Shown: positions 9,191 to 46,949 of the stretch, one piece after another
Layout: every line of letters starts with the position of its first letter
How positions within the stretch are numbered: position 1 is the first letter of the stretch
From: a virus
Virus genome (UHGV): UHGV-0287696
Strand: one strand, 5' to 3'
Length of the DNA: 64,000 nucleotides
Made by a program: the position numbers and the translations under genes
Notes under the pieces: generated by a model
Databases searched by the model: none
Told to the model about the DNA's origin: nothing
What the model saw: only the letters and a program-made list of their open reading frames with translations

Positions 9191-9649
9191 TTGATGAAAA
9201 TGCTGTTATTCATCATGATGGTGTTCGTGGGGTTGGTGAGTAATAGCTACGGCGACGAAGTTAAACGTCCAGCTTATAGGCCACTGGAACTTCCTCCTAC
9301 ACCACCAATAATGGTGAATTGGAAAATTGACAATAACGCAATGCGTGAGTATGTTGCGGACGTCAACACCTATGCTTACTACGTTTATGTCTACACCCGA
9401 AATTTAAACCAACAAGCCGTTAAACGTGGCTGGAGCCCACCAATGCTGGCTCCACTTTGTGAGCGTTATGAGTTACCGAAGTTACATGTTGTACCCGAAC
9501 GCTTATCTCTTGACGAAAGCTCTTTAACGCCCCAGGAGATTAGCCGTGACCTATCGCGTAAACTCAATAATTTGTTGTGGAATTACCGTTCCGACCGTCA
9601 GACACTACTCGATTCGTACAACCAATACTTGACATCGTGTTTGTACTGA
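9191..9649 (+). CDS. secreted protein (signal peptide)
   Basis: N-terminal MMKMLLFIMMVFVGLVSNSYG; start immediately after the upstream stop; terminator downstream. Confidence 0.4.
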   Translation: MMKMLLFIMMVFVGLVSNSYGDEVKRPAYRPLELPPTPPIMVNWKIDNNAMREYVADVNTYAYYVYVYTRNLNQQAVKRGWSPPMLAPLCERYELPKLHVVPERLSLDESSLTPQEISRDLSRKLNNLLWNYRSDRQTLLDSYNQYLTSCLY

Positions 9650-9653
9650 CACC

Positions 9654-9696
9654 CCCTCCTGTACCCATTCGTGGTACAGGAGGGTCTTTCTTTTTA
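9654..9696 (+). terminator. intrinsic terminator
   Basis: 12-bp stem CCCTCCTGTACC / GGTACAGGAGGG followed by TCTTTCTTTTT. Confidence 0.6.
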
Positions 9697-9739: not shown

Positions 9740-10474
9740 ATGACCTACCCAAAAATTGTCACCCCGTACACACCGACGCTGGTTATTGGCGCTGATGCTG
9801 AAACCAAATCATTACGTCCCGATGCTTATCTGTTAAGTGCAGGTTTAGTGGCTTTTGACGTCCCTACATTGAAAATGGTAGGTTCCTCATACATCAGGAT
9901 CGATCCTAACGATCCTAAAGCAAAAGCCATTTTCCACGAAGACCCACAAACCGTTGGTTGGTGGGAAGGTAAAGGCGAACCCGAATACGCACCGTCTCGT
10001 GAAGCCTATGCGGAAGCATGGGGTGGGACAACAGCATTGCCAGACGCGCTGTGGGCGATGCAAAAATGGCTCGGGGAGATCACCGCAAAACATGAGTTTG
10101 TGATTACCATGCGTGGTCCTGACTTCGATGCGCCGATTTTCATGAACGCATTCGCACAATGTGATATTCCGCCAGGGAAGTTCCGTAAATTCAGTGCACT
10201 GGATAGCGATCGCACCGCAGAACGTTTAGCCTTTGCATTTGGGTTCGAGCCTGACCTAACCGTAGAGCAAATTTACTGGACACGCGGTAAGCCCGCTTTT
10301 GAGCACCACGCAATGTGGGATGCAGCAAAAGAAGCCTACACCACGGCACGTATTTACCACCTCGCTTTGGTCACTCGCCAATACGGGTTTGAACGCGCCA
10401 AAGCCTGTCACGAAGAACTGAAAACGGGCGAGTATGTTGCGCCGCAGATTCGTGATCAATTAACCAGGGATTAA
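9740..10474 (+). CDS. DEDDh-type 3'-5' exonuclease (DnaQ/DexA-like)
   Basis: Exo I-like LVIGADAETKS and Exo III-like HHAMWDA motifs. Confidence 0.5.
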   Translation: MTYPKIVTPYTPTLVIGADAETKSLRPDAYLLSAGLVAFDVPTLKMVGSSYIRIDPNDPKAKAIFHEDPQTVGWWEGKGEPEYAPSREAYAEAWGGTTALPDALWAMQKWLGEITAKHEFVITMRGPDFDAPIFMNAFAQCDIPPGKFRKFSALDSDRTAERLAFAFGFEPDLTVEQIYWTRGKPAFEHHAMWDAAKEAYTTARIYHLALVTRQYGFERAKACHEELKTGEYVAPQIRDQLTRD

Positions 10475-10476
10475 GA

Positions 10477-11997
10477 ATGAAGAACGTTGATGTTGCAGTA
10501 ATTTACACGGATGGTAGCCATTTGACCTCCCCGCTCGGTACAGGAGCGGGGATTCATGGATACTTATTTAATCGTGAAGCGATTGAGGATGGTCGGGTTT
10601 ACCGCCATCCCTCTATTCCCGAGGGGATTACGACGTCAGGATACCGCCAGATAAACAAGGATGAAAAACTTCCACCTTTACCTGAAACCGTGGAGTTTAT
10701 TGACGGTGTTGTCCCTGTACCAAAAATGTCACACTCCGACGTTGCAGAACTCGTGGCTTTCCTGACCGTTTTCGAACACGCACCTTTCGTTGCCAAAAAC
10801 TATGTTATCTATATCGACGCCTCTTACGTTGTCAACACGTATAACGATTGGATTGATGGTTGGGCTGCGCGCGGCTGGCGTCGTGCAGACGGTACGCCTA
10901 TTGCGAACTTGGAATTAATCCAACGGATGTGGGAGGTTAAACAGCGGTTAAAGAAAGAAGGGAAAGGTATTCGTGTCCTTAAAATTAAAGGGCACTCAGG
11001 ACGCTATGGAAACGAGCGTGCCGACGAGTTAGCACGGAAAGGTTCAAGTATTTCGGCTCGAGGTGAGGGGCTAGACTATACACCGTATTGGTCAAAAGAC
11101 GAGATGCCTGAGGAAGAACAGCAACCAGAAGTTGTTGGTGAAGGTGTCAATTTGTCCGCTTTTCCCGATATCTGTGTTACGAAGTTCTGTTACCCGATGG
11201 TGAACGAACCGCATCCCACTGTTACAGTTAACGGTAATAAACTTTATTACATGTTCGGTGGGAACCATGCAAAACAGAAGGACGATATCGTCTTCGTTGG
11301 TAAGTACATTCCAGATGCACAATTCTGCGTAATGTTTACCAAAGAACCGTGGGATAACGTATACGAGTTGGTAAATACCCACTCTGCGAAAGCGTGGGAA
11401 GGGGTGCCCCGTTTACGTCAGTTTGATCCCATCGCCGTTGTTTTTAACTTATTCGTAAAACGTAAGAAGTTCGCAGAAGCCGCAGGTAACGGTATTCCTG
11501 TCGATCGGATGCATTTTAGCGAAGACAAAAACCTGTGGATGTTTGAAGATCTTTCGATTACGCGAATTCTTCGTCCCGCGTTATTGTCTTATCGCTGCAT
11601 TACGATTCGTGATGAGCTTGCAGGTTGGTTACGCGATGCCATGGAGGGGAAAAACTCAGTCGTAATGAACGACATTACTGACCTGCTTTACGATGAGAAA
11701 GGTAAGCCGAAGAAAGACTTTTATCGTAACGTAGATAAAGGTTTTGACGTAACCATCCATATCCCTGGTAGCAAAAACAAGGTTAAAACCATCCTTACTC
11801 GAGGTATCGACATACCGACGCGTACGGAAATCAACCGTATGAAAGAGCCAGAAGGGCGTTTCTACGTGGCGGTACGGCGTCCAGAACGGCAGTATATCGA
11901 GTACGCGTTGGTTTATATTGGGGAAAAATATCATGGGTTGTGGTGTGGCTATTATTCAAACAAACGAATATTGACGGATAAGGAGCTTGAATGCTGA
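10477..11997 (+). CDS. RNase HI-like nuclease with a large C-terminal extension
   Basis: VIYTDGS and WAARGWRRADGTPIANLELIQRMW...KIKGHSGRYGNERADELARKG closely parallel E. coli RNase HI as recalled. About 315 further residues are of unknown function. Confidence 0.65.
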   Translation: MKNVDVAVIYTDGSHLTSPLGTGAGIHGYLFNREAIEDGRVYRHPSIPEGITTSGYRQINKDEKLPPLPETVEFIDGVVPVPKMSHSDVAELVAFLTVFEHAPFVAKNYVIYIDASYVVNTYNDWIDGWAARGWRRADGTPIANLELIQRMWEVKQRLKKEGKGIRVLKIKGHSGRYGNERADELARKGSSISARGEGLDYTPYWSKDEMPEEEQQPEVVGEGVNLSAFPDICVTKFCYPMVNEPHPTVTVNGNKLYYMFGGNHAKQKDDIVFVGKYIPDAQFCVMFTKEPWDNVYELVNTHSAKAWEGVPRLRQFDPIAVVFNLFVKRKKFAEAAGNGIPVDRMHFSEDKNLWMFEDLSITRILRPALLSYRCITIRDELAGWLRDAMEGKNSVVMNDITDLLYDEKGKPKKDFYRNVDKGFDVTIHIPGSKNKVKTILTRGIDIPTRTEINRMKEPEGRFYVAVRRPERQYIEYALVYIGEKYHGLWCGYYSNKRILTDKELEC

Positions 11998-12659
11998 TCG
12001 TTTATAGTGAGGTCTTGTCAAAAGCCCCTCGGTTTTTACAAACTCACTTTATGTATAACGCACGGCAGTATTGGGGCTTTAAAGCCCCTTACTCCGAAGA
12101 TTGGGAAGTTGTGGAAAAGTTAGCATTTGTGTTTTCTCTTTCGTTGTTGTGGGAGATCATTGCACTATACAACGCGGGTTGTGATATCCCGGAGAACGGC
12201 TTTTTCCAACAACACCTATTCCAAAAATTCACAGCATCGGTAGAAAATCATGAAGTGCGCAAGGAGTGTATCGGCTACGCAGAGCATTCTGAAGAATTGA
12301 GAAAGATTTCCAAATTAGTTATCACGCGGACATGGGCTGAATTCGAAACTTACCCCGAAAAAATAATTTGGTTTAATCGTGAACAGTTTATTAAAGAGGC
12401 AGTCAGTCAACATCCCGTTCGATTAATCGTGTTAAAGCCGTCCGATCTTGCCTTACGCCACATCTATTCGTCTCCAGAGGAAATCGTTTTTTCCTCTGGA
12501 ACAACAGATTATGGTATTTTTAAACAAGGCGATTCTTGGATTCTTCCACACGATTTAGACGGGTATTTGCTCAGTAGCGATCAAATACATTCGGGTTATG
12601 ACTCACAGGTGAAGGAGTTTACAGTCGATCCTTTTTTCGCTAAAAATATTCTTAGATAG
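11991..12659 (+). CDS. hypothetical protein
   Basis: ORF with AAGGAG upstream; first gene of a tightly coupled five-gene block. Confidence 0.4.
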   Translation: MLIVYSEVLSKAPRFLQTHFMYNARQYWGFKAPYSEDWEVVEKLAFVFSLSLLWEIIALYNAGCDIPENGFFQQHLFQKFTASVENHEVRKECIGYAEHSEELRKISKLVITRTWAEFETYPEKIIWFNREQFIKEAVSQHPVRLIVLKPSDLALRHIYSSPEEIVFSSGTTDYGIFKQGDSWILPHDLDGYLLSSDQIHSGYDSQVKEFTVDPFFAKNILR

Positions 12660-27881: not shown

Positions 27882-28201
27882 TGGTTACGAACGACAATAT
27901 CAAGAAAAAGATTGACGAAATTATAAGCGTCAGTTTAGATAGAATCGAATTAATTCCCGAAACTAAGGAGATCAAATATTACGTTCCTGCGGACGAACTA
28001 TTTCCAGGTCTTCTTAGAATCTCACCAAAAAAGGTTGAAGAGGCTAAACGACAATTCGAAGTTCGTGGCCTTAAGGTTGACATTGTTAACAAAAAACATT
28101 TCCATGTAACGTATAGCCAGGAAAACATTATATTTAGTCCTGAACAAGCGCAACGTAATTTAGATATTTTAACGAAACGAATGGGGAATAATAACAAATG
28201 A
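27881..28201 (+). CDS. hypothetical protein
   Basis: TGATG overlap with the upstream gene. Confidence 0.35.
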
Positions 28202-29232
28202 AACAGTATTTAGCGCTAATGCAAGACATTCTGGATAACGGTGTTGTCAAGAAAGACCGCACAGGTGTAGGGACACTATCTGTATTTGGTCGTCAACTAC
28301 GTTTTGATCTGAAAGAAGGTTTCCCATTAGTTACTACGAAGAAGGTTCACCTGAAAAGTATCATTCATGAACTGTTGTGGTTCTTAAACGGTGACACTAA
28401 CGTGAAGTACCTGCAAGAGAACGGGGTAAAAATTTGGAATGCATGGAGTGATGAAGAGGGGAACTTAGGGCCAGTTTATGGTAAACAATGGCGCGAATGG
28501 CGCGACTGTAAAGTTGTGGAGTGTCATGACGTAAGACGTACACAACAACTAATGCAACGGGGTTACAAGTATATTGGGAATATGAAGGAAGATGGTACGA
28601 CGTATTTGGTTTATGAAAAAGCACATGACCAGATCAGCAAAGTTATCCGACAACTTCGTGAAGACCCTGACTCCCGCCGTATTATCGTTAGCGCCTGGAA
28701 TGTAAGTGACCTGGACGATATGGCACTTAATCCATGTCACGACTACTTCCAGTTCTACACAACGGAAATGACACTGCTTGAGCGACTGGATTGGTACGAA
28801 GCAAATGAACCGGAAAAATTTGCGAACGCGCCACTTATTAATCACGAAGATATTGATGATGAAGAACGACTTCATGAAACTTTAGATCGTGAAGGTATCC
28901 CTCGTCGTAAGCTTTCATGTTTTTACATGATGCGGAGCAACGATGTCGCATTAGGAAAACCGTTCAACATCGCGTCATACGCTCTGCTAACTCATGTGGT
29001 TGCCCAACAAGTGAATATGGTTCCCGATGAGTTAGTTTATAGTGGGGTCGATGTGCATTTATATCTGAACCACCTCGATCAAATAAAACTCCAGTTGACA
29101 CGTGAGCCGTACCCGTTACCTAAATTGGTTATTAAACGTAAACCCGAATCTATCTTCGACTACAAATACGAGGACTTTGAAGTAGTCGGTTACCAATCTC
29201 ACCCACACATCGCCATGCCTGTTGCGGTGTAA
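28198..29232 (+). CDS. thyA: thymidylate synthase (ThyA family) with two insertions
   Basis: Near-identical blocks to E. coli ThyA as recalled: [65 protein letters not shown], active-site [27 protein letters not shown]. Confidence 0.85.
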
Positions 29233-33999: not shown

Positions 34000-36900
34000 T
34001 TACGCTGATTTACGACTAACGTCGAGTTTCGGCGCGGGTTGAGTTATTGACACGTTACGTGACGCCGAACCCGGAGCGGTTGACGCCGGGTTAGCCGGAC
34101 CGTTTTGCATAGCCTGTGGCCGCTGACGAAGAATTGTTACAATCTCTTTCAGATAGCCTGCAGACTCTTTTGCAACCGCCAGCTGTTGTACACTGATCGG
34201 ATCACCACTGTTCACTGTAGAAGCGGTCTGAGCATCGGAAGTTACCGTTGGTGCAGGACGGGCCGATTTCTCCATCTGCTGTCTAGCACCTTCTTTTACT
34301 TTGGCAACCTCTTCTTCGGCCAGGCCATCAGCACGTGCATTTTGACCCACCGTCTCTACAACAACTGACGCATCGCTCGGCGTGACATCGCCACCAGGAC
34401 TCGGCACAGCCGGACCACCACCCGTTGCAGCTTTAATATCTTCAGCACCCATCGCGCCTTTGTCTGCTAAAGCGGAGTCACGATTCGCTTCGTTCGCGGC
34501 TGGCAGGTTATCTGCCGGGCCTGTGATAGACGGATCGTTAGCAGCGCCTGCAGCGATAGCCGGGGAAGACGGCATTGGCGTTACACCTGTCGTCAAGTCT
34601 TTCAGCGATGCCTGGTTAGCCGCGATCGCGTTTGTTCCTACAGCACCAATCTTACCACCCATGATGTTGAGCACTTCATCCAAACTACGCAATTTTCCAT
34701 TCTTGTAGAAAATTGTGCTGTTTGCCGCGATTTGATCGGCCGACGCACCACGCGACGATGGGCCGTTCGGATCACGCTTCCATTCTTGCAGGAATTTCTT
34801 ACCGCCACCTTGTCCTAAGAAGTGGTAGAGGTAAACAGCTGCACCTGGAGGATCGATACCACCTAAATCCTTTCTGGCTTTCTCGATATTATCACGAATA
34901 TGACGGACGCCAAGCAGAGCATTCGCCCACGGGTCATACTGGTTGGTTTGCGGGATACCGTAACGTCTCGCGTAAGCTTTCATCTGCGCACCCCAGGTAT
35001 CGTTGATGAACTGGAACAAGCCAGCCGCAGAACTTCCTTTAGCTTTGATACCGTATCTAAGCCCAGATTCTGCTTGTGCCATTCCCAGTGCTAACGCTGG
35101 AGGAACACCCATCATCTTCGCTACGTCTGTAATCAGTGCTGCAACCGCATTCAAGTTAGGCTTCAATCCGTCACCCAACGTTGAAATTGGATACTTAGCC
35201 GCTAACGTTTTATAGTCACCGTCTTGCATATCGCCAAGTTTCACGCCGAAGTTACCGGTAGTAAATGCAGCGTAATTCTTAGCTCCCATCTGACCGTAAG
35301 CACCGGCCAAATCGTTTGGTGTGCCGTAATTCCCACCGTCGTTCGCTGCCGGTTGCAATAGGTCACGATAAGAGGAGGAGGTGTTCATCTGTGGTCGAGA
35401 CGGTTGCTCCTTCTCGTCATCGGTCAAGAACATCTGGGTCGCACGATCTTTTCGCTGCCAGTTCACACGGAAACCCGCAGAAGGCGTAGCACGCAGCGTT
35501 TTACGTACTGCCAAGTCAGCTTCCTTAGACAGTTCTTTCAGGTTCTCTAACTCTGTTGCAACTGAACCGGCGTCGGTGTTAGCGTCTCCCCCTAACGGGT
35601 TAAACGGTACCTCCCACACTGACTGACGAATACCCCCTTTCAGGTTGTATGCACCACGCATCATCAGTGCGATTTCATACAAGAACCCACCCGTAACGCG
35701 TAGGTCCATCGGATCGGCGGCAGGAACATAACGTTTTACCCCAACGATGTACGTCATGAAGACAGGTAAGAAGCGGTTATAGAACCAGTTCTTGTACCGA
35801 TCTTCTTTTGGCCCACCAATGGCGTCAGGCGCAATCACCGCAATCGCACGTTTCCAGTCGCCTTTATACGTGCAGCTTTTCACATCGGTGTCTTGCAACA
35901 CTTGACGTTCCAAGAGCGTATAGAGGTTACGGGTTGTTTGAGTAATGCTCACCGCACCATAAGCTTTCAACCTTACGGACTCCAAATCACGGAGATCGGT
36001 TTCTTTAGGTAAGCTTCTCCAGTCGACTTGAACCTGAACTTGTTCGGTGCCGTCTTCCCAACCTTCGACTTTCGCAACTTCTTTGTTGCGTTCCGCATCC
36101 GCTTGAGCCAACGCTTGGGTCGATTCCGCCACAGAAGCAACTTTGTGTCCTTCGGCCACACCGCCTGTAGCATTTACATCCTTACGTTTTTCATCACGAC
36201 GCATGTTAATCGAACGAAGCACGCGTTCTTGCGCTTCAACGACTTCTTCGCCTGACAAAAACTCGGCCGGGGTAAACGTTACGAAATCCCACGCTTTAGA
36301 GAACCAACCTTGGTTAACCTTGCGGGGATCTTCTAATGCACGGAATGCAGGCGCATCTTTCGACATCTTCATTTTGTTGAAGATATTCAACATGTCTGCC
36401 TTTGACACTTTCGCAGGATTACCGACATCTGCTAACGCGATATCATTATCCATGGATTTCAGTGCCGTAATCCAACGTAAATAGATCGGCACAAAACGTT
36501 GTAGCATAAACGCACTAAACGCCAGCATTTCGCCTTTGTCTTCTACGTTAGTACCAAACCCTTCGGCCAGTTTCTTCACGTCGTCACCGGACAAACCACG
36601 CAACTGTGCTTGGCCATTCTCTGTATAAGAGATATACGGTTTCAAGTTGTCTTCTAAATAACGTGCTTTTGCGCCATCATCGGAAGACCATTCGTCATGA
36701 TCTCTAAATCCGTACTGTGCCAATCGCATGTTATCCAGATACTGAGCATTTACACGGGTTGCAGTTTTATACGCAAACCAAGACACCGCAGCGCCCGCAG
36801 CGACCAAACCGATAATCGGCCAGCCAACCGCAGTTACCACTGCAGATGCTGCCGTCGCGACAGCACTCACCGCAGGGACAGCCAAACGGGTTACGGCAAA

Positions 36901-39900
36901 TTTACCAACGTTCCACAACGCTTTACCTGCAAACCCAACCGGCTTAAAGATTCCCCATTTTGCAACTTTACCTAAGATTGAACCCACTGTGCCCAAAATA
37001 CTCACAATCGGCCCTACCAACGGCAGTCCTTTAAGGAAATCCATTACCCCACGTTTACCGCCTTTCTTCTCAGCCTCTTTCTTAGCCTTTTCCTCTTCCT
37101 TAGAACGACGACGGCGTCGGAAGAACTGGAAGTAATCGCGTTTTTCATCACTGGCAGGTGGCTTGTTACGTTGACCGAACTTACTGAACATGGTTCTTAA
37201 CAAACCATCCGAAGCACCTGCTTTTTCCGCAGAATCACGCATGGTATTAAACCACGACATTTCCTGAAGATTAACCATTCGGTTCAGGCGTTCCAGTAAA
37301 GCCGACCCAACGCTACGGGCTTTCTGTTTCCCTTTATTAATCACACGTCCAGCGCTATCCGTTACGGTGTCTAAGTCTTCTTTTGCCGCATCGATGATAC
37401 GTGTTTTAGACACCTTGCCTCTTGCGTAGATGTGTTGACGATAAAACTCAGCAACGTCGTCATCGCGTCCTGCTAAACGACTCTCCATTCGATAACGTGT
37501 TCCAATGTCGTAACGCGGATCACGGAAGGTATCGACCATATCGCTTGCACGACCACGGAAACGGTCAAACCAATCACGTGCTGCACCACCCCAACGAGAA
37601 AGACGGCCACCTACCGCACTGCGGTAACGGGACATTCTGTCACGCATCCGACCACGCCAATCCCGGAACCCTTGAAAATGTTCACGGAACCCTTCGCGTA
37701 TGTCCTTAGCACGTTGGAATAATCCTTTAACTGAACTGGCCCCCGTATTCCGCTCCATCTGTTCTGTCCAGGTGTCATCTTCAGGTTCACCTGGCAATCT
37801 CCGGTTAAGGAGTTTGTAGATACGGATTAAGATGTGGTTAGTTTTACGGCCATTCGACCACGAGAACACACTAAACCCACCACCAGAACCCCCTTCCTTA
37901 CGGTTCTGCCACCAACGTGTCAACGGATTATCAGAAGCCAACTCTTTGAGCTTCTCAAACCCACGTTTTGCATTGTTCCACAGACGAGCTGGCATTCCCG
38001 TTACGCGGGAAATCATGCTTTGTAAACGGGTTTTCTCTGCACCCTCTGGAACCTCATTTAACCACTCGCGTGCTTTCTCGAACAACGAAGCCGCTTTAGG
38101 CGAAATGAAACCCAGAAGTTTCTTCGGTAAGGTCACAGCTTTGTTTACCGCCGTTCCTGCCTTCCCAGAAATGTACTGGAAAAGCGCTTGAACTTTACCG
38201 CCTTTGTAGAAGCGTAGTTTACCTGCGGCAGCCAAATCAGCAGCCGCTAAGATTAAATTACCCGCTTCGTCGACGATGTCACGTCCCAGTTTAATATCGT
38301 CGAGAGTTTTAAGTTGAATCAGCTTCTCAGTTTTCGGGTCAGCCTGGTAATAATCCCCAGCTTCTAAACGACTTCCTTGTAATACGACGTTACCACGTTC
38401 ATCGTAGATGTCGCGAACGCCTAAAACGCCTTTACCGAAAGCTACGGCAGAATTCCAACCAGTCGATAATGTACCAGTTACTAACCCTTTCAGTCGGCTA
38501 AATACGCCAGGACCTTCGGAGGAACCGCCTGAGAATTTCCCACGAATAAAACCACCTAATGCTTGTAGGCGATCTTTCCCACGTAGGAACAGATTCTTAC
38601 CAAACCGTCCTACACCAGAACCGGTATCCCAAAGCACCCCAGCCCAGCGACGTAGCAAACCTGTCTCGCCTAGTACAATACGTTTGCGCTTACGACGACG
38701 TTTACGGCCCGATTCACTCGAACTTTCAGGTTCGTCGCCGTCATCACGACTACCGCCTAAACTGGCTAGAAGAATACCTTCCTCATCCATGTTCTTAACG
38801 TGTTTGAGGATGTCTTGCACGATGCTAGATTCAGGCTGTTTACGTACCGCATCAATCAAACGATCGAACTGTTGTTCCAGCCCGGCGTTCGTATCTGGAC
38901 GGCTGCTTAAGAGCTCAACAAAGTTGGTAGATTTCTCTCCATAAAGTACCGCAGCGAGTTGACGGGCGCTTAAACCACGACCGCGACCACCCTTTCCACC
39001 ACCACGTACGTTGGACAGTTCTTTGTCTTCAAAGCTCGGCTCTGCACCTGCCCCCATCCGACGCAAGTAATCACCCAACGCAGAACCGTTTTGCAGCTTA
39101 CGTTGAATCTCTTGCTCACGGGTTAACGAACGGCCAGAGCGGGTCTTACCCATCGACAGGTCGTTAAATAGCGTATAGGGATCGTTAATGTCCTTATCGA
39201 CTTCGAAAATGTCGTTCTTCGCATCGTATTTAAAAATACCGGAATCGCGAAGTGCGTTCTCGCCGTAAATCACAGACGCAGCGTCAACCGTGTCTTGACG
39301 TGCACGAATCGTTGACTGGATAGCGGCGATTTTGTTTGAAATAGCATTACTCAGTTCATGGTGTCCACCAACCAGTTCCGCAGAACGGGCTTCTAAAACA
39401 CCCTGAATCGCTTCCACAGCGTTTGCGTTCATGTAACGATACATGTGCATCGGGTCTTTCAATAAAGACCCTACATCGAACGCTTTCCCTTCTGAGGCAC
39501 GAGACTCGATGTAGTCCGCTAACGCTTGACGTGTTTTCCTATCGAGCGTTTTATCTTTATCGATAAAGTCGACAGTGTCGTTGATGTACGTCTGTAAACG
39601 TTTACGCTGATCGTCATTAGCAACGGCCTTACGTACACGATTACCAATGACTTTGCGATCCACCATACCACGCGTGGTCAGGTCATAAACCTGATCGTGG
39701 TGTTCGCCATACCCACGACGAATAGATTTGTTAATCTCGGACAGTAACGTCGGAATAACTTCGGTGATACTAAGGTAAGCTTTACGATCGAATTTCGCCG
39801 CGGCAGAAAGAGATTCCGCAGAGCGATCATCTAATGCTAAGGTTTCGCGACGTAGCGGGTTAACTAGCCCCAAATCGTGCATTAGTCGAAACAGATCAGC

Positions 39901-41124
39901 TAACGGACCGCTTGTTTCTCCCGCTATTGCCGAGTTAGAAATAGACGACAAATTTCCAAAGCCATACTTCGCCAACTGTAGGCGTTTCATGACTTCTGGG
40001 TTTTTCTCTAACTCGCCACGTGTCCAGTTCTGAAGACGTTCGATCTGGGGTTGTAAGAGACGTTTTGCTAACCAACCACCTGCAAAACCTGCCGCTTTAT
40101 TACGCGAGTTTGTGTTACGACGGTCAGGAGACAACGATGAGCTGTCCGACATGTCAAAGTCATCTTCCTGAGCCATCCCTAGAACTTGTTCTAGAATCCC
40201 ACGGCCATCACTAAAGATGTTCGAGATTTTCTTCTTCGCGTTTTCGCGAATCTGACCAATGAAATTGTCTGCGTAGTGTAAGGGGTTCATCCACTCCGCA
40301 GCTTTACGTTTTACATTAGCCCAACGAATTTCAGAAAACTCTTCCTTCGCGTAGTCCGGTAGTGCTGTGTTCTTAACGATGGCTTCTAATGCCGGGGTGT
40401 TGCGTGCAAACTCGTCTTGTTTGAGTTTCGCAATATCCTGCAAAGCAAACAATGTCCGATATTGCAGCTCTAACTGCTTACGCTGAACATTTAACAACAC
40501 ACCACGACTTAAGCTAGTCGTTAAGTTGACGTCTTTCGCAATACCGATTACGGTCTGGAACAGTGCGTCGGACTTCATGTCCTTAATCGTGTCGCGCAAG
40601 CGGTCTTCAACCATCCCCTCTTGCGCCTCACGTTGCTGGTCCGCTGTTTGCGGTGCACCTGAGAACACGCTGTCCAGCTCACGATCCATCATCGCTTGTT
40701 TAGGATCGTAATTCCCATAGTCGATTTGATCGTTACGTGCCCACTTGTCGATTTTCCGTGTTACGGATTCCGGTAAATACCGTTTCAGTGTTGGGCCTAA
40801 CTGTCTCGCTTGCATCTTGACGACGCGAGACGTCTTTTCAATCTCGTCTTTCGTATGGGCCAGAATGTCTTGACCTGCAGCTTTAACGTTTTGATAGCCT
40901 TCGTAGGCTTCTGCCGCAGGTTTAGGCATCCCTTTTAAAATAACCTGATCACGTTTGTTTTCGGGCCAGATAGTCGACAACGCCGACTTACGGGCAGCAC
41001 GAAATGTGTCCATGACCGGGTTACGCGATTGGTCTTGTTGACGAGGGGGCTCATCAAAATCGTCCCAGTCGTCCATGTTATCAAGATCGATTTCATCGAA
41101 ATCATCTTTACCTTTTTTAGCCAT
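34000..41124 (-). CDS. giant virion-associated protein (2374 aa) with internal lytic transglycosylase domain
   Basis: Single uninterrupted ORF. Acidic N-terminus, hydrophobic segments mid-protein, SLT motifs (AQAESGLRYG, AAGLFQF, Y...) about 1950-2100 aa from the N-terminus, Ala/Gly/Pro-rich C-terminal tail. Confidence 0.7.
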   Translation of the reverse strand: MAKKGKDDFDEIDLDNMDDWDDFDEPPRQQDQSRNPVMDTFRAARKSALSTIWPENKRDQVILKGMPKPAAEAYEGYQNVKAAGQDILAHTKDEIEKTSRVVKMQARQLGPTLKRYLPESVTRKIDKWARNDQIDYGNYDPKQAMMDRELDSVFSGAPQTADQQREAQEGMVEDRLRDTIKDMKSDALFQTVIGIAKDVNLTTSLSRGVLLNVQRKQLELQYRTLFALQDIAKLKQDEFARNTPALEAIVKNTALPDYAKEEFSEIRWANVKRKAAEWMNPLHYADNFIGQIRENAKKKISNIFSDGRGILEQVLGMAQEDDFDMSDSSSLSPDRRNTNSRNKAAGFAGGWLAKRLLQPQIERLQNWTRGELEKNPEVMKRLQLAKYGFGNLSSISNSAIAGETSGPLADLFRLMHDLGLVNPLRRETLALDDRSAESLSAAAKFDRKAYLSITEVIPTLLSEINKSIRRGYGEHHDQVYDLTTRGMVDRKVIGNRVRKAVANDDQRKRLQTYINDTVDFIDKDKTLDRKTRQALADYIESRASEGKAFDVGSLLKDPMHMYRYMNANAVEAIQGVLEARSAELVGGHHELSNAISNKIAAIQSTIRARQDTVDAASVIYGENALRDSGIFKYDAKNDIFEVDKDINDPYTLFNDLSMGKTRSGRSLTREQEIQRKLQNGSALGDYLRRMGAGAEPSFEDKELSNVRGGGKGGRGRGLSARQLAAVLYGEKSTNFVELLSSRPDTNAGLEQQFDRLIDAVRKQPESSIVQDILKHVKNMDEEGILLASLGGSRDDGDEPESSSESGRKRRRKRKRIVLGETGLLRRWAGVLWDTGSGVGRFGKNLFLRGKDRLQALGGFIRGKFSGGSSEGPGVFSRLKGLVTGTLSTGWNSAVAFGKGVLGVRDIYDERGNVVLQGSRLEAGDYYQADPKTEKLIQLKTLDDIKLGRDIVDEAGNLILAAADLAAAGKLRFYKGGKVQALFQYISGKAGTAVNKAVTLPKKLLGFISPKAASLFEKAREWLNEVPEGAEKTRLQSMISRVTGMPARLWNNAKRGFEKLKELASDNPLTRWWQNRKEGGSGGGFSVFSWSNGRKTNHILIRIYKLLNRRLPGEPEDDTWTEQMERNTGASSVKGLFQRAKDIREGFREHFQGFRDWRGRMRDRMSRYRSAVGGRLSRWGGAARDWFDRFRGRASDMVDTFRDPRYDIGTRYRMESRLAGRDDDVAEFYRQHIYARGKVSKTRIIDAAKEDLDTVTDSAGRVINKGKQKARSVGSALLERLNRMVNLQEMSWFNTMRDSAEKAGASDGLLRTMFSKFGQRNKPPASDEKRDYFQFFRRRRRSKEEEKAKKEAEKKGGKRGVMDFLKGLPLVGPIVSILGTVGSILGKVAKWGIFKPVGFAGKALWNVGKFAVTRLAVPAVSAVATAASAVVTAVGWPIIGLVAAGAAVSWFAYKTATRVNAQYLDNMRLAQYGFRDHDEWSSDDGAKARYLEDNLKPYISYTENGQAQLRGLSGDDVKKLAEGFGTNVEDKGEMLAFSAFMLQRFVPIYLRWITALKSMDNDIALADVGNPAKVSKADMLNIFNKMKMSKDAPAFRALEDPRKVNQGWFSKAWDFVTFTPAEFLSGEEVVEAQERVLRSINMRRDEKRKDVNATGGVAEGHKVASVAESTQALAQADAERNKEVAKVEGWEDGTEQVQVQVDWRSLPKETDLRDLESVRLKAYGAVSITQTTRNLYTLLERQVLQDTDVKSCTYKGDWKRAIAVIAPDAIGGPKEDRYKNWFYNRFLPVFMTYIVGVKRYVPAADPMDLRVTGGFLYEIALMMRGAYNLKGGIRQSVWEVPFNPLGGDANTDAGSVATELENLKELSKEADLAVRKTLRATPSAGFRVNWQRKDRATQMFLTDDEKEQPSRPQMNTSSSYRDLLQPAANDGGNYGTPNDLAGAYGQMGAKNYAAFTTGNFGVKLGDMQDGDYKTLAAKYPISTLGDGLKPNLNAVAALITDVAKMMGVPPALALGMAQAESGLRYGIKAKGSSAAGLFQFINDTWGAQMKAYARRYGIPQTNQYDPWANALLGVRHIRDNIEKARKDLGGIDPPGAAVYLYHFLGQGGGKKFLQEWKRDPNGPSSRGASADQIAANSTIFYKNGKLRSLDEVLNIMGGKIGAVGTNAIAANQASLKDLTTGVTPMPSSPAIAAGAANDPSITGPADNLPAANEANRDSALADKGAMGAEDIKAATGGGPAVPSPGGDVTPSDASVVVETVGQNARADGLAEEEVAKVKEGARQQMEKSARPAPTVTSDAQTASTVNSGDPISVQQLAVAKESAGYLKEIVTILRQRPQAMQNGPANPASTAPGSASRNVSITQPAPKLDVSRKSA

Positions 41125-41153: not shown

Positions 41154-42773
41154 GTGAATAAACTTAATTGGGTTGACTTTTATCTGCTCAATGTAAACAA
41201 GTCTCTTGTGTCGCGATTACGACCCGTCACGACCACGGATACTTTCCAGGGGTTAACAAAAAACTTTCACCCCGAAGGTCTTTACTCTACAGAGATATTT
41301 GGACTCACGGGGAGTGAAGCGCGAGACTCTACTTTCTCTTATATCGATATTAAACTCGATATCATTTCGCCGACGGTGTGTTTGGCGTTATTCCAACTCA
41401 AACAACTCTACGAAGAAATTTGTTCTGGAAAACGCTACGCAACGTGGAGCGAAAAAGAAAAAGATTTCGAACCGGCCTTGCCGGGAGACCCAGGCGCAGA
41501 TACCGGTTTTAACTTCTTCCTCAGTCACTATAACGATTTAAAACCTAAGCGTAACGAGTCCCTACAACGTGACGAAACCGTGGATTTCTTTTTGAAATTC
41601 CGTCCCGTTAGTCTTAGTCGATACGTTCTCGTGTTACCCGCGGGTTTACGCGATTTAGTAATTCGACAAGATGGTAGAGAACAGGAAGAAGAAATCGGCG
41701 GGATGTATCGTCGGTTGGTATCACTCGCCAGGGCGATCCCTGACCGAGCAACCCGTGTTGAATTAACTAACCCCGTGCGCTGGAAACTGCAACAAACCTT
41801 CAACGATATCTGGATGTATTTCTTTAACATCCAAGACGGTAAAGGGGGTTTCCAACGTCGTAAAGTGACGTCTCGTAAATTAATGAACGGGACACGTAAC
41901 GTACTGTCCTCGTTCTCGACGGGGTCTAAGTGCATGGGTCGTGAAGACGCTATTCGTCCCACCGACACCAAAATTGGTTTATACCAGGGTTTAAAAGCAT
42001 TACTCCCCGTTGCGCAGTACCAGATACGTGAACGTTACCTCGGTAACATCCGTGCTGGTGACGGCAACCTTTACGGCGTAAACACCAAAACCCTTAAACG
42101 TGAATTCTTGGAAGTAGGTGGTCGTGTATACGACACCTTTACCACCGACGATGGGATTGAATCCTTAATCAACCGAATGGAAGCTCGCGAGCTTCGCCAT
42201 CAACCGATTATGTTGGACGACACCCACTACGTTGCGTTGGTTTACCAAGACACCAAACATTTTAAGGTGTTCTACGATATTGAAGAACTTCCTAAAACGT
42301 TTGACCGAAAATTCGTTCACGGTATGACGCTCGTCGAATTGCTTTATTTGTCGGGCTACGAACTTTGGAACGATTATTTCGGTTTCGTTACACGTTATCC
42401 CGTTACAGGCCGAGGCTCGACGTATTCATCGACCATAAGATTGGAGACCACCACATCATCTTTATACTTAAAAGAACTGGAAGATGACTGGGAAACTGAA
42501 AAACCCCGAGGGGCTATCAGCTACCCTGACCGGTCGGTTCCTACCTTCGTTGAGTCGATGGCACCACACCCTTCACGCTTAGGTGGCTTAGGGGGTGACT
42601 ACGACGGCGATACCGGGTCGTTTAACGCGCCTATGTCCCAGGAAGCACTCGAGGAAAACCGGAATTGGATACACTCGAAAAACTACTGGTTCGATTCTGA
42701 TGGGAACTTTAAAATCAATCCTATCAACAACGTGATTAAACGTGCAACGCAAGCGTTATTAAAGAACCCATAA
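41154..42773 (+). CDS. large hypothetical protein with DYDGD motif (possible RNA-polymerase-like catalytic loop)
   Basis: GTG start with AGGAG upstream, divergent from the giant gene; GGLGGDYDGDTGSFNAP lies near the C-terminus. Confidence 0.5.
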   Translation: MNKLNWVDFYLLNVNKSLVSRLRPVTTTDTFQGLTKNFHPEGLYSTEIFGLTGSEARDSTFSYIDIKLDIISPTVCLALFQLKQLYEEICSGKRYATWSEKEKDFEPALPGDPGADTGFNFFLSHYNDLKPKRNESLQRDETVDFFLKFRPVSLSRYVLVLPAGLRDLVIRQDGREQEEEIGGMYRRLVSLARAIPDRATRVELTNPVRWKLQQTFNDIWMYFFNIQDGKGGFQRRKVTSRKLMNGTRNVLSSFSTGSKCMGREDAIRPTDTKIGLYQGLKALLPVAQYQIRERYLGNIRAGDGNLYGVNTKTLKREFLEVGGRVYDTFTTDDGIESLINRMEARELRHQPIMLDDTHYVALVYQDTKHFKVFYDIEELPKTFDRKFVHGMTLVELLYLSGYELWNDYFGFVTRYPVTGRGSTYSSTIRLETTTSSLYLKELEDDWETEKPRGAISYPDRSVPTFVESMAPHPSRLGGLGGDYDGDTGSFNAPMSQEALEENRNWIHSKNYWFDSDGNFKINPINNVIKRATQALLKNP

Positions 42774-42782
42774 GGCTAAGCA

Positions 42783-45700
42783 ATGCTGCTCATTAAACAG
42801 TTTAACCAACGCTTCTCGGTGCGTAAAACTGACGAGTTTGGTAATCCGAGGATTATCCCGCTCGAGAAGCTACAGATACCACGTGGTTCTGTACTCCATG
42901 TCATTGATCTCGACCAGGTGGTATTAGCGCCACCTGCAACACTCGAGATTATTCAACCGTTAGAAAAACCTGCACAGGTTCGTCACCACTTTAAATTACC
43001 GGAAGACGGTATTAGCGGTCATCCGCGCAACAAACCTGTTCAGGGGCAAGAACGTGCTATCTTTGCTTACCACCGTGCAAACCGCCCGATGCGTCGTCTT
43101 ACCTCAGACGATCTGGTTCGCAAAGACTTAAAAGTTCTCCTGGTCGAGAACTACACACCAATGCTATCGCACTACTACTATCCTGACACCCAGTTAGCCT
43201 GGTACGATAGACTGCGTAACATCCAACTGTTGATGATTAACCAGTTCAAATACGACACGCAAGAATACATGCGTCAGAACTATTTCGTTATTGAACTGGG
43301 TTCGACTCTACCTTCGTTCCAGAAGTTTCAAACAACCTATAACGACCGCGTTAAGAGCAAGATTGAGAAGTTCCAGGACTTCAACTTGCTGTGGTTATTG
43401 GAGTTGTTTGCTTGGGCTTATGGAAAACAATCCGATTCCCTATTCTCGGGAATGGATTTAACTCAGCTGTCACGAATGAACTTTATCTTCACCCACAACA
43501 CGGGCTTTACGTCCATGAACATGGGTGTTGTAGAGAAAATGCGTAAGTCGTCCGGCGGTCGTTTAAGTGATGACCAAATGGCCAGGATGTTCTACCGTAC
43601 GCTGGTGCGTGTAATGACACAAGCACCGTCTAACGCGTACGAAGCTGAATTCCTAACGCCTGAAGGCGACGAGCGTGTTTTCCTTAAAGACGTCGAAGAA
43701 GAAACCGTTGATGTTGTCGACGATGACGATGTTGTTAATGACGCTGTGGTGGAATCCGATAACACCTTCGATGAAAAAGAAGACGTTGTTATTGAAGAAC
43801 CGAAGGAAGACGTCAAACCGACGACCATCGTCGTCGAGAAAGTCATTCCGCATGACGAGATTATTAAACAGGAAGCACAACGCTTAGCTGAAGCGGGCCG
43901 CTTAAGTTCTAAAGCATATCAGTTCCTGTCAGAATCGTCTAAACGTTTCGTTCAGCTACCTAACCCGTATAACCCGAAAGAAACCTACGGGGAAGCACTG
44001 ACTGTTCACGAGAAAGATATCGTCGTTAAAGCCGAGCCGAAAAAAGTTCAGCGGCTTGTTACCGATGAAGGGTGGGCAGAGAACGTCACCGACCAGATGG
44101 TGAAACAATACAACCAGACCATGATGACCAAAGACGTACTGGCGGCGGTCGCCAGTTCACAACGTTTGGGTCTGGCGGTTCACAACCACACGGTGGAAAA
44201 AGAAGTTTCTGTTACAGGAACTATCGAGCACCACACCTTACGTGTTCAGCCAGTCGGTGGTGAGCCAACAACCGTTCGCTTCTCTATCCCAGGCTTGACC
44301 GAGGACGGTACTTGGGTCGCTAATGGTGTCGAATACACCATGCGTCGCCAACGTGTGGACTTACCGATTCGTAAGGTTGCACCGGATACTGTCGCACTGA
44401 CTACCGCTTACGGTAAAAACTTTGTCCGTCGTAGTGATAAAGTCGCAAACGATTACGGCCGTTGGTTAACCAACGCGATTATCACACGCGCCGTTGACCC
44501 GACAAACACCGAAGTCACCGATGCACGTTTAGCAAATGTGTTCGATCCTACGCAACATCTGCCTCGTCAGTATACGGAGATTGCACGCCGTATTGCCAGC
44601 TTTAATGCGAACGGCTATATGTGGAACTTCGACTACAAAGAAGCCGTTAACTTCTTTAACGACGAGCAACTCAGAGACGCCGATGCTGCCAAACTTCTGC
44701 CAGTGGCGAAACGTCCGCGTAGCGAAACAATCCTGGCAATGGATGACAAATCCATGCTTTACGGTGTGAACGGAAACAAAGTTGAACCAGTGGGAACCAT
44801 CGCAGAGGTATTGGGCTTTAATAACCAGAAAGTGCCTCGCGAAATGACCGAGCTGTCTTTGATGGGTAAATCTTTGTCGCTTGGTTTTATCTTCTCGTTC
44901 TATCTTGGACTCCAGGGAATGTTGAAACATTTCGGTATCCAGTACGAGTTGGTTCCTACAGGACAGCGTGTTGATAAGAATGCCTACGACAGTATTATTC
45001 GACTACAAGACTGTAAACTTTTAGTTACTTGCGATAACGATCAGCAGAGGATGATTCTGCATGGTTTGGATCGCTATCTCAAACACCTGGTTGCTTATAC
45101 CGAATCAGAAGCAGACCGCGAAGACATTTACCTGAACTTATTACGTGAAGCAGATGGCCTAACGCCACGGTACATCAACGAGCTGAAACAGATGCGGTCC
45201 GCGTTTGTTGACGACATGCACGCACGTATCCTCAGGAAAATGGGTGAGCCGGAAACCTTTATTGGCTTGCTGGAACGTTCTAACGAACTGTTACAAACTG
45301 ACCACTCTTTACCAGAGATTAACGGCGATGAAATGATGTTCTTAGGAAATCAGAGGATTGCCTACCACATCTATACTGCGATGGTCAGAGCGATGCGTAA
45401 CTACAATAACGCACCGGGCAGTAACCGTAAGTTCGAACTGACACAAGACATGGTTTGGGGTGCAATTAACTCCGACCCGTCGGTACTTTTGGCACCAGGC
45501 GCTAACCCTATCCAGTCAATTAAAGAAAAAGACGTTATTACGATGGGGGGTACAGGTGGTCGTAATCGTAAAACGATGGTCTACCACACGCGTGAGTTCC
45601 AACCCAGTGATATCGGGATAGTCTCGGGTAATACCGTAGATAACGGCGACGTAGGGATTACTGCTTTCGTCACCAATAACCCACGTTTTGACACCGTTGA

Positions 45701-46949
45701 CGGTACCACGTTTAAGCGTGAAGAGAAAACCCCGAAACCAAGCGATACCCTTTCGTTTATTGACGGGTTAGTACCCGATACGTTAATGGACGATGCAAAA
45801 CGTCAAAACTTCGTTGGGATTCAGTTAGGTTCTGCCACCAGTTGTAATGGGGCAACCACAACCCCGTATCGTACTGAACAGGAGAAATTCGTCGCACACC
45901 GTACTTCGGTGAAACATGCACGCGTTATTGATAAAGCAGGTAAGATTACTGGTCTGTCGAAAGACCACATTGAAATTACGTACGAAGATGGAAGTAAAGA
46001 AGCCTTTCCTCTAGGGCGCTGGTTCGGCCCCCACGAAGGTACCTTCTATCCGCACACCTTGGTAACACGCTGGAAAGCCGGTGATAAGCTCCCGGCCGGA
46101 GCAGTGATTACGTACAACGAGCAACACTTTGAACCTGATATTTACGATCCTACTCAGGTTTCCTGGAAAAACGGGGTGCTGGCCACCGTTGCTTTATTAG
46201 AAGCTGAAGAAGTTATCGAAGACTCCAACGCAATTTCTGAACGGTTCGCGAAGAAAATGGTGGGGCAGGTAACAAAGCTGAAAGAAGTGACGATTAACAG
46301 CAACCAGATGCTTTTGGAAATCGTGAATGAGGGCGACCACGTAGACGTCGATACAATCCTATGCACGTTTACTGACGACTTGACGGGCGATATGAGTGCC
46401 TTTAGTCAGGAAGCAGCCGCAACGTTGCAAAGTTTAAGTTCGTACGCACCTCGTGCAGGGGTACGTGGTATCGTGGATAAAATCGAAGTGGTGTATCACG
46501 GTGAAACCGAAGACATGACGCCAAGTCTTGCTGAGCTGGTGCGTAAATACGACAGAATTCGTCGTAAAGCCGCACTGGCAGTCGGACGCGGTGATCCGGT
46601 TTCAGGCAGTGTAAACGGCGACTACCGTGTCGAAGGTGTACCCTTGGCCTTTAACTCACTTTGTGTTCGATTCTTTATTACACACGACGTTGAGATGGCC
46701 GCTGCGGATAAGATGGTTATTGCTAACCAGCTAAAAACCACCGTACAAGAAGTCATGTACGGCGACAACAAAACAGAGGATGGTGATGACCTGGACGTGT
46801 TGTTCGGTCGCGATTCCGTCGATGCGCGTATCGTAGGTTCAATCCAACGTATCGGTACCGCGAATGCTGTAGGTGAACAAGCCGGGATTCTCATCGGGCG
46901 TATACTCGATGGGGAGGCTGTGCCTGATTTACCCGCGACACTTAAATAA
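42783..46949 (+). CDS. large hypothetical protein (1388 aa)
   Basis: Long ORF in the same frame as the upstream ORF, separated from it by TAA-GGC-TAA; internal acidic run; function unknown. Confidence 0.5.
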   Translation: MLLIKQFNQRFSVRKTDEFGNPRIIPLEKLQIPRGSVLHVIDLDQVVLAPPATLEIIQPLEKPAQVRHHFKLPEDGISGHPRNKPVQGQERAIFAYHRANRPMRRLTSDDLVRKDLKVLLVENYTPMLSHYYYPDTQLAWYDRLRNIQLLMINQFKYDTQEYMRQNYFVIELGSTLPSFQKFQTTYNDRVKSKIEKFQDFNLLWLLELFAWAYGKQSDSLFSGMDLTQLSRMNFIFTHNTGFTSMNMGVVEKMRKSSGGRLSDDQMARMFYRTLVRVMTQAPSNAYEAEFLTPEGDERVFLKDVEEETVDVVDDDDVVNDAVVESDNTFDEKEDVVIEEPKEDVKPTTIVVEKVIPHDEIIKQEAQRLAEAGRLSSKAYQFLSESSKRFVQLPNPYNPKETYGEALTVHEKDIVVKAEPKKVQRLVTDEGWAENVTDQMVKQYNQTMMTKDVLAAVASSQRLGLAVHNHTVEKEVSVTGTIEHHTLRVQPVGGEPTTVRFSIPGLTEDGTWVANGVEYTMRRQRVDLPIRKVAPDTVALTTAYGKNFVRRSDKVANDYGRWLTNAIITRAVDPTNTEVTDARLANVFDPTQHLPRQYTEIARRIASFNANGYMWNFDYKEAVNFFNDEQLRDADAAKLLPVAKRPRSETILAMDDKSMLYGVNGNKVEPVGTIAEVLGFNNQKVPREMTELSLMGKSLSLGFIFSFYLGLQGMLKHFGIQYELVPTGQRVDKNAYDSIIRLQDCKLLVTCDNDQQRMILHGLDRYLKHLVAYTESEADREDIYLNLLREADGLTPRYINELKQMRSAFVDDMHARILRKMGEPETFIGLLERSNELLQTDHSLPEINGDEMMFLGNQRIAYHIYTAMVRAMRNYNNAPGSNRKFELTQDMVWGAINSDPSVLLAPGANPIQSIKEKDVITMGGTGGRNRKTMVYHTREFQPSDIGIVSGNTVDNGDVGITAFVTNNPRFDTVDGTTFKREEKTPKPSDTLSFIDGLVPDTLMDDAKRQNFVGIQLGSATSCNGATTTPYRTEQEKFVAHRTSVKHARVIDKAGKITGLSKDHIEITYEDGSKEAFPLGRWFGPHEGTFYPHTLVTRWKAGDKLPAGAVITYNEQHFEPDIYDPTQVSWKNGVLATVALLEAEEVIEDSNAISERFAKKMVGQVTKLKEVTINSNQMLLEIVNEGDHVDVDTILCTFTDDLTGDMSAFSQEAAATLQSLSSYAPRAGVRGIVDKIEVVYHGETEDMTPSLAELVRKYDRIRRKAALAVGRGDPVSGSVNGDYRVEGVPLAFNSLCVRFFITHDVEMAAADKMVIANQLKTTVQEVMYGDNKTEDGDDLDVLFGRDSVDARIVGSIQRIGTANAVGEQAGILIGRILDGEAVPDLPATLK

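Follow-up and report, generated by a model that had tools for sequence, protein, structure and literature searches.

Nucleus-forming jumbo phages carry no recognisable clamp or primase according to an earlier survey, yet all of them encode an RNase H1 (PMC7824862). The name Rhc (RNase H-clamp) comes from two preprints of October 2026 (PMC13648687, PMC13648698). Rhc supplies the missing sliding-clamp function in these phages. Because it is essential for the replication of their genomes, its correct recognition matters for annotation; it matters also for the engineering of such phages for therapy. Most database records label the protein only as "ribonuclease H" or "hypothetical protein". We analysed a stretch of 64,000 nucleotides of the virus genome UHGV-0287696 (the window), which encodes on its plus strand a protein of 244 amino acids (aa) at 9740-10474 and a protein of 506 aa at 10477-11997, stop codon included. 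As a whole, the locus is very probably best explained as the Rhc gene (10477-11997) of an uncultivated Chimalliviridae phage, preceded by a DEDDh exonuclease gene acquired by its clade. The 506-aa protein is a new, divergent member of the Rhc family; at only 25% identity to the protein of PhiKZ, it retains the active site, the basic clamp positions and the division into two domains.

PhiKZ155 (Nlp2) is a core chimallivirus gene, and its product is reported to enter the phage nucleus via Imp1/PicA (10.1101/2024.03.27.586873). In cryo-electron microscopy structures, one Rhc clamp domain sits on the thumb, palm and palm-insertion of the split B-family polymerase of PhiKZ (gp82 and gp50), grips the emerging duplex and shifts the polymerase from primer degradation to extension; a flexible tether keeps the RNase H domain close to the incoming template, and a catalytic-dead Rhc still stimulates the polymerase (PMC13648687). 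PhiKZ155 was described as a genuine RNase H in vitro (PMC12571901) and as essential, with an essential role that is independent of the nuclease (PMC13648687, PMC12571901). The Rhc of phage Goslar has 508 residues, with the RNase H domain at 1-209 and the clamp at 210-508. It is required for replication and, separately, for some of the late genes to be transcribed, probably via the removal of R-loops, and its clamp domain by itself directs nuclear localisation (PMC13648698). Both the PhiKZ and the Goslar protein cut RNA-DNA hybrids in vitro (PMC12571901, PMC13648698).

The 506-aa protein affiliates with phrog_3265 (E=2e-170 over aa 1-504), and 171 isolate phage records match at least 80% of the query. 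In a BLASTP comparison with PhiKZ gp155, confirmed as the gene PHIKZ155, aa 5-494 aligned with residues 3-476 at 25% identity (E=3e-31). The closest isolates were Erwinia phage Asesino (66.5% identity) and SPN3US-like phages of Salmonella (~64%), which represent Erskinevirus and Seoulvirus, both Chimalliviridae; PhiKZ-like proteins followed at ~25%. The genomic surroundings of Rhc are conserved as well. A block consisting of a DUF7194 gene and a virion protein gene (both -), one or two small open reading frames (ORFs, +), Rhc (+) and, further on, a UvsX-like gene is common to PhiKZ, Asesino, SPFM19, Kwan, Ralstonia phage FLC4-4C, Serratia phage Haymo and Vibrio phage pir03. Megablast against isolate phages returned no match for the locus, and an identical Rhc protein was found on 11 metagenomic contigs, the longest of 223,910 bp (ENA ERZ28565542). 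This identifies the source as an uncultivated chimallivirus of ~224 kb, with ~66% protein identity to the nearest isolates.

The N-terminal part of the protein (aa 1-208; 10477-11100, +) is predicted from its sequence to be a catalytically intact type 1 RNase H, in line with the first-pass annotation, which had recognised an RNase HI with basic protrusion and terminal motif. Pfam PF00075 matched aa 81-190 (E=9e-21, 75 bits; cut-off 25.8 bits), and both the basic-protrusion segment WIDGWAARGWRRADGTPIAN and the terminal motif GHSGRYGNERADELA are present. A loss of the catalytic carboxylates was looked for and not found: D12 is kept in 46 of 47 homologues, and E91, D114 and D183, together with H173, in all 47. 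The invariant D114 aligns with D102 of PhiKZ, whose mutation gave the published catalytic-dead protein. A profile of the 47 sequences retrieved human and E. coli RNase H structures from the PDB at ~1e-27, with strand beta1 covered by a separate weak stretch. An insertion had been noticed before and is real, but it does not follow directly upon the YTDGS strand and does not reach ~80 aa, an estimate that overlooked beta2 and beta3. It comprises ~41 aa (aa 32-72; 10570-10692, +) between beta2 (GTGAGIHGYLF) and beta3 (EFIDGVVPV), at the site where the HMMER alignment with human RNase H1 breaks, and it is confidently folded in the AlphaFold2 model, with a predicted local distance difference test (pLDDT) score of 94-97. 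The corresponding segment measures 34-57 aa in all 47 homologues, and the insertion is thus specific to the family; the accessible text of the Rhc literature gives no role for it. In comparison with cellular RNase HI and RNase H1 (E. coli RnhA, catalytic domain of human RNASEH1), the protein adds this 41-aa insertion and a C-terminal extension of 298 aa, and its score stays below the NCBIfam equivalog cut-off (65 versus 160 bits). A stand-alone RnhA acquired from the host was rejected on these three grounds: the score, the family-specific insertion and the clamp domain.

The large C-terminal extension was seen correctly in the first-pass annotation, which regarded it as unexplained; it is already accounted for by the clamp domain of Rhc published in 2025-2026. 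It consists of an acidic disordered linker of 13 aa (aa 209-221; 11101-11139, +; EMPEEEQQPEVVG), which holds five D/E, no lysine or arginine and has a pLDDT below 50, and of a folded domain of 285 aa (aa 222-506; 11140-11994, +), predicted as a sliding-clamp-like DNA-binding domain. Sequence searches were uninformative for this domain. Pfam, searched at E up to 10 with 22 C-terminal domain sequences, returned neither a clamp family (PCNA, DNA_pol3_beta and related families) nor any other match, NCBIfam gave no match for the domain, and the family profile gave none within it against PDB sequences. The domain is recognisable by structure comparison only. The AlphaFold2 model of the full-length protein reached a mean pLDDT of 91.6, and aa 222-506 modelled alone reached a pLDDT of 90.2 with a predicted template modelling score (pTM) of 0.89. 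In two independent models this part adopts a two-lobed DNA-clamp fold, with the ring-forming two-lobe clamp subunits 9-1-1, PCNA and gp45 as its closest structural matches. A Foldseek search against the PDB gave weak matches (best E=1.9e-3, template modelling scores of 0.2-0.3), of which 11 of the top 15 were PCNA or 9-1-1; this is weak corroboration of the clamp fold, and the predicted relationship is one of distant similarity at the level of the fold. Since the structure comparison came first, the assignment as a clamp is independent of the published Rhc descriptions. In addition, lysine or arginine occupies 19 sites of the domain in at least 80% of the homologues, among them R329-K330-K331 within KRKK (aa 328-331), R366 and R373 in the motif LRPxLLSYR, R449, R454 and R497, a pattern that fits a DNA-binding surface.

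A frameshift as the origin of the extension was also considered and rejected. The open frame, the length and the C-terminal domain are kept in hundreds of genomes, the architecture is the same throughout phrog_3265 and the 171 phage records, and the predicted fold of the domain has high confidence. When the C-terminal domain alone was used as a profile, 1055 cluster representatives were matched.

Among the described proteins, PhiKZ gp155 (482 aa) shows the same end-to-end architecture of an RNase HI with a beta2-beta3 insertion, a linker and a clamp-like domain, and its syntenic position, catalytic residues and interface motif LRPxL all match. Its residue M346, located at the polymerase interface, aligns with the conserved L370 of LRPxLLSYR. 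The window protein is 24 aa longer than gp155. The Goslar protein is near-identical in length and domain boundaries (1-208, 209-221 and 222-506 in the window protein), and its host is likewise enterobacterial. It is less similar in sequence than the proteins of the SPN3US/Asesino clade, since Goslar was not among the 64 matches with E<1e-30, and its gene was not located in the 160-205 kb stretch of MK327938. Catalysis and clamp both matter in Goslar. The clamp-derived processivity factors UL42 (of herpes simplex virus), UL44 and PF-8 (of Kaposi's sarcoma-associated herpesvirus) have no detectable sequence relationship with the protein and carry no nuclease domain; UL42 is stably bound to its polymerase, whereas the PhiKZ Rhc is reported to bind only transiently (PMC13648687). 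The archaeal PCNA-RNase HII complex (PDB 3p83), whose PCNA chain was among the Foldseek matches, shares the logic of an RNase H held at the replisome by a clamp. Unlike the window protein, it joins separate proteins non-covalently through a PIP-box, and it uses a type 2 nuclease and a ring clamp. Based on the analogy with PhiKZ, the 506-aa protein would primarily be a polymerase accessory subunit with a tethered RNase H. The earlier suggestion of a fused enzyme for primer removal or R-loop processing remains reasonable for the N-terminal domain, given that the PhiKZ and Goslar proteins cut hybrids; it does not extend to the C-terminal domain, which is predicted to be a polymerase accessory. 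In PhiKZ the essential role is reported to be non-catalytic.

The gene directly upstream (9740-10474, +) is predicted from its motifs to encode an intact DEDDh 3'-5' exonuclease of the Rv2179c-like/RNase T-like type, as had been noticed in the first pass. The protein matched Pfam PF16473 (Rv2179c-like; E=2.5e-11, 44 bits; cut-off 27 bits) and phrog_255, annotated as 'exonuclease' (E=3.8e-44). The motif Exo I, LVIGADAETKS, lies at aa 14-24 (D19, E21) and Exo III, HHAMWDA, at aa 189-195 (H189, D194). Among 24 homologues, H189 and D194 never vary, while D19, E21 and D130 are kept in no fewer than 90%; these five are the putative catalytic residues. The family profile aligned weakly with E. coli RNase T (E=0.1), with Exo II and Exo III in register. 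Compared with Rv2179c of Mycobacterium tuberculosis and RNase T-type enzymes, the protein scores above the PF16473 gathering threshold and retains all five DEDDh residues, but it is very divergent, with no PDB sequence match better than E=0.1, and has ~40 extra C-terminal residues. A single-sequence search of PDB sequences returned only a spurious match to IspE, and NCBIfam gave no match. The two genes are tightly coupled, also as described before: the exonuclease stop codon TAA (10472-10474) is followed by GA and the ATG of Rhc at 10477, which leaves a gap of 2 nt. The ATG of Rhc is preceded by the Shine-Dalgarno-like motif AGGGA 7 nt upstream and that of the exonuclease by the ribosome-binding site AGGAG 8 nt upstream.

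Close homologues of the exonuclease occur only in an enterobacterial clade, with 65 records covering at least 80% of the query. This clade comprises the relatives of SPN3US, Asesino, Wellington, Machina and CR5 in addition to the uncultivated phage analysed here, and its 65 genomes coincide almost entirely with the 64 that have a close Rhc. The next relatives, at ~26-30% identity, are encoded by small phages of Vibrio, Edwardsiella and Serratia with genomes of ~36-58 kb. In every case examined (~64 clade records and two divergent metagenomic loci) the exonuclease gene adjoins Rhc. In the two metagenomic loci, where the exonuclease has only 46-48% identity, the overlap between the genes measures 4 nt or 1 nt. 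At the position upstream of Rhc no exonuclease was present in the PhiKZ, Ralstonia, Serratia Haymo and Vibrio pir03 loci; in PhiKZ the small unrelated ORFs PHIKZ156 and PHIKZ156.1 are located there. The identities of exonuclease and Rhc to the window proteins are similar (64/67% in Asesino, 61/57% in Wellington and 46/47% in CR5), which points to a single ancestral acquisition followed by vertical descent. The constant presence of this gene before Rhc in one clade is the sole piece of the locus that lies outside the coverage of the recent Rhc papers; it is a testable lead and no surprise. No experimental literature on the upstream exonuclease was found.

Several Rhc homologues and records deviate from this pattern. 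Unusually long homologues were examined for a fusion of exonuclease and Rhc, and none was found: their N-terminal additions were rejected as fused exonucleases and proved to be GIY-YIG or I-TevI-like homing endonuclease domains or a Macro domain. Four metagenomic homologues of 668-752 aa (P0102, P0119, P0209 and P0231) carry an extra GIY-YIG catalytic domain and/or an I-TevI-type DNA-binding domain N-terminal to the RNase H and clamp parts. The 5' end of Rhc may thus have been joined to a homing endonuclease, either by a true fusion or as a product of gene calling. Another metagenomic protein (P0164, 585 aa) starts with a Macro domain (aa 1-104), continues with ~200 residues without assignment and ends with an Rhc-type clamp domain (aa 315-581) that is 30% identical to that of the window protein; no RNase H domain was detectable in it. 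The clamp module thus seems to occur in P0164 with a different N-terminal enzyme. Several records of the Salmonella SPFM phages (e.g. P0050, P0052, P0053, P0055 and P0086-P0091) contain broken or partly unrelated versions of both exonuclease and Rhc; their matches to the window proteins cover no more than 4-27% of the query, and they look like assembly or frameshift errors.

With regard to its role, the exonuclease could be an accessory gene unrelated to its neighbour, acting in DNA end-processing or recombination, in the salvage of nucleotides from host nucleic acids, or in counter-defence. We consider the chances of this explanation to be only slightly below even. The restriction to one clade and the location of the nearest outside relatives in small phages suggest horizontal acquisition, and GenBank labels the homologues as 'endodeoxyribonuclease', 'exonuclease' or 'exoribonuclease', in each case without data. 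Opposed to this are the tight translational coupling, which has been kept over deep divergence, and, for the part that concerns defence or counter-defence, the result that neither the exonuclease nor Rhc matched a defence-related PADLOC model.

A second explanation regards exonuclease and Rhc as a dedicated module for RNA removal, in which the RNase H would nick and the DEDDh enzyme trim, and takes this to be the main job of the locus in the clade. The 2-nt gap and the short overlaps in divergent relatives, the pair never being apart in ~64 genomes, the parallel divergence of the two proteins and the foundation of PF16473 on a 3'-5' exoribonuclease are all in its favour. We nonetheless judge it unlikely: most chimalliviruses need Rhc and have no exonuclease at this locus, the adjacency can be explained by one insertion with vertical descent, no fusion proteins were found, and the essential role of Rhc in PhiKZ is reported as non-catalytic (PMC12571901). 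A related proposal, to which we assign a similarly low probability, is that the exonuclease represents a clade-specific extra component of the Rhc-polymerase machine in enterobacterial chimalliviruses, either as an exoribonuclease imported into the nucleus or as a binding partner of Rhc. In the first version it may clear short RNAs released by the RNase H domain, replacing host Orn or RNase T should the nucleus exclude these enzymes; in the second it may bind Rhc directly. The pattern of adjacency is compatible with a partnership of the two proteins and does not demonstrate one.

Lastly, a true ring clamp, e.g. a PCNA-like trimer encircling DNA and carrying three RNase H domains in place of a monomeric UL42-like subunit, is highly improbable, for although the best structural matches are ring-forming subunits and chimalliviruses have no other recognisable clamp (PMC7824862), the PhiKZ Rhc is reported to lack clamp-oligomerisation elements, AlphaFold predicted no oligomer and cryo-electron microscopy resolved a single Rhc per polymerase (PMC13648687), and these phages have no known clamp loader (PMC7824862).

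For the preferred reading, an Rhc with a non-ring clamp domain and an upstream exonuclease acquired by the clade, a mechanism can be proposed whose steps for Rhc we infer from the experiments on PhiKZ and Goslar. A single subunit would dock with its clamp domain on the thumb, palm and palm-insertion of the polymerase formed by DNAP-N and DNAP-C. There it would hold the duplex leaving the active site and move the polymerase from exonucleolysis to synthesis, in a manner similar to the herpesvirus UL42. The tethered RNase HI would reach the incoming template and strip annealed RNA, be it in R-loops or as primers. Since transcripts in the phage nucleus are made without coupled translation, annealed RNA should be common there. 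The determinant for nuclear import probably resides in the clamp domain as well. The exonuclease would stem from a single acquisition by the ancestor of the enterobacterial chimallivirus clade, immediately 5' of Rhc and in translational coupling with it; our best guess is that it acts as an exoribonuclease that degrades the short RNA products of the RNase H domain.

A number of observations weigh against parts of this reading. The 506-aa protein shares no more than 25% identity with its experimentally studied PhiKZ counterpart, and the C-terminal tail that contacts the polymerase differs: the hydrophobic interface residues F478 and I479 of PhiKZ align with K496/R497 when the BLAST register is extended ungapped past the end of the alignment, or with K502/E503 in a global alignment. 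As no hydrophobic equivalents are found in either case, the contact with the polymerase in this clade is one that we infer. Genes for this polymerase are not located in the window, and none was detected among those window ORFs scanned against PHROGs, a part of the ORFs of at least 230 aa; the presence of the polymerase in this phage would be expected from its relatives. Full-length homologues of DNAP-C (PhiKZ gp50) are encoded in the closest isolate genomes (~34% identity, E ~1e-133), ~170 kb from Rhc, a distance that explains the absence from the window. Moreover, the need for RNase H catalysis differs between PhiKZ and Goslar. Concerning the exonuclease, the clade-wide adjacency amounts to one ancestral insertion and is thus weak evidence for a functional link, the lack of a fusion protein counts in the same direction, and a preference for RNA or DNA as substrate cannot be read from the sequence.

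The surroundings of the gene pair are compact. A strong terminator-like hairpin was predicted by a consensus scan at 9654-9684 (+), in the interval between the exonuclease gene and a small ORF that ends at 9649; it has a 12-bp stem with 8 G-C pairs and a T-run behind it, and a separate transcription unit may begin there. In PhiKZ the small ORFs 5' of gp155 are reported to be co-transcribed with it (PMC12571901); the window instead has the hairpin upstream of the exonuclease gene. Downstream, an ORF of 222 aa affiliated with phrog_9472 (11991-12659, +) overlaps the end of Rhc, stop codon included, by 7 nt from its ATG. With the 2-nt gap on one side and this overlap on the other, the three ORFs form a tightly packed string, and the 222-aa ORF probably belongs to one translationally coupled string with the exonuclease and Rhc. 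It had a marginal match to the PADLOC model PDC-M19B (E=0.003), which is probably due to chance. The PHROGs scan further identified in the window a tail sheath gene, a UvsX-like gene and beta genes of a multisubunit RNA polymerase. At 28198-29232 (+) lies a thymidylate synthase-like ORF (344 aa) that spans the profile phrog_160 only at positions 33-308 and, given this shorter span, may contain an insertion. On the minus strand, an ORF of 2374 aa (34000-41124) adjoins the RNA polymerase beta genes at 41154-46949.

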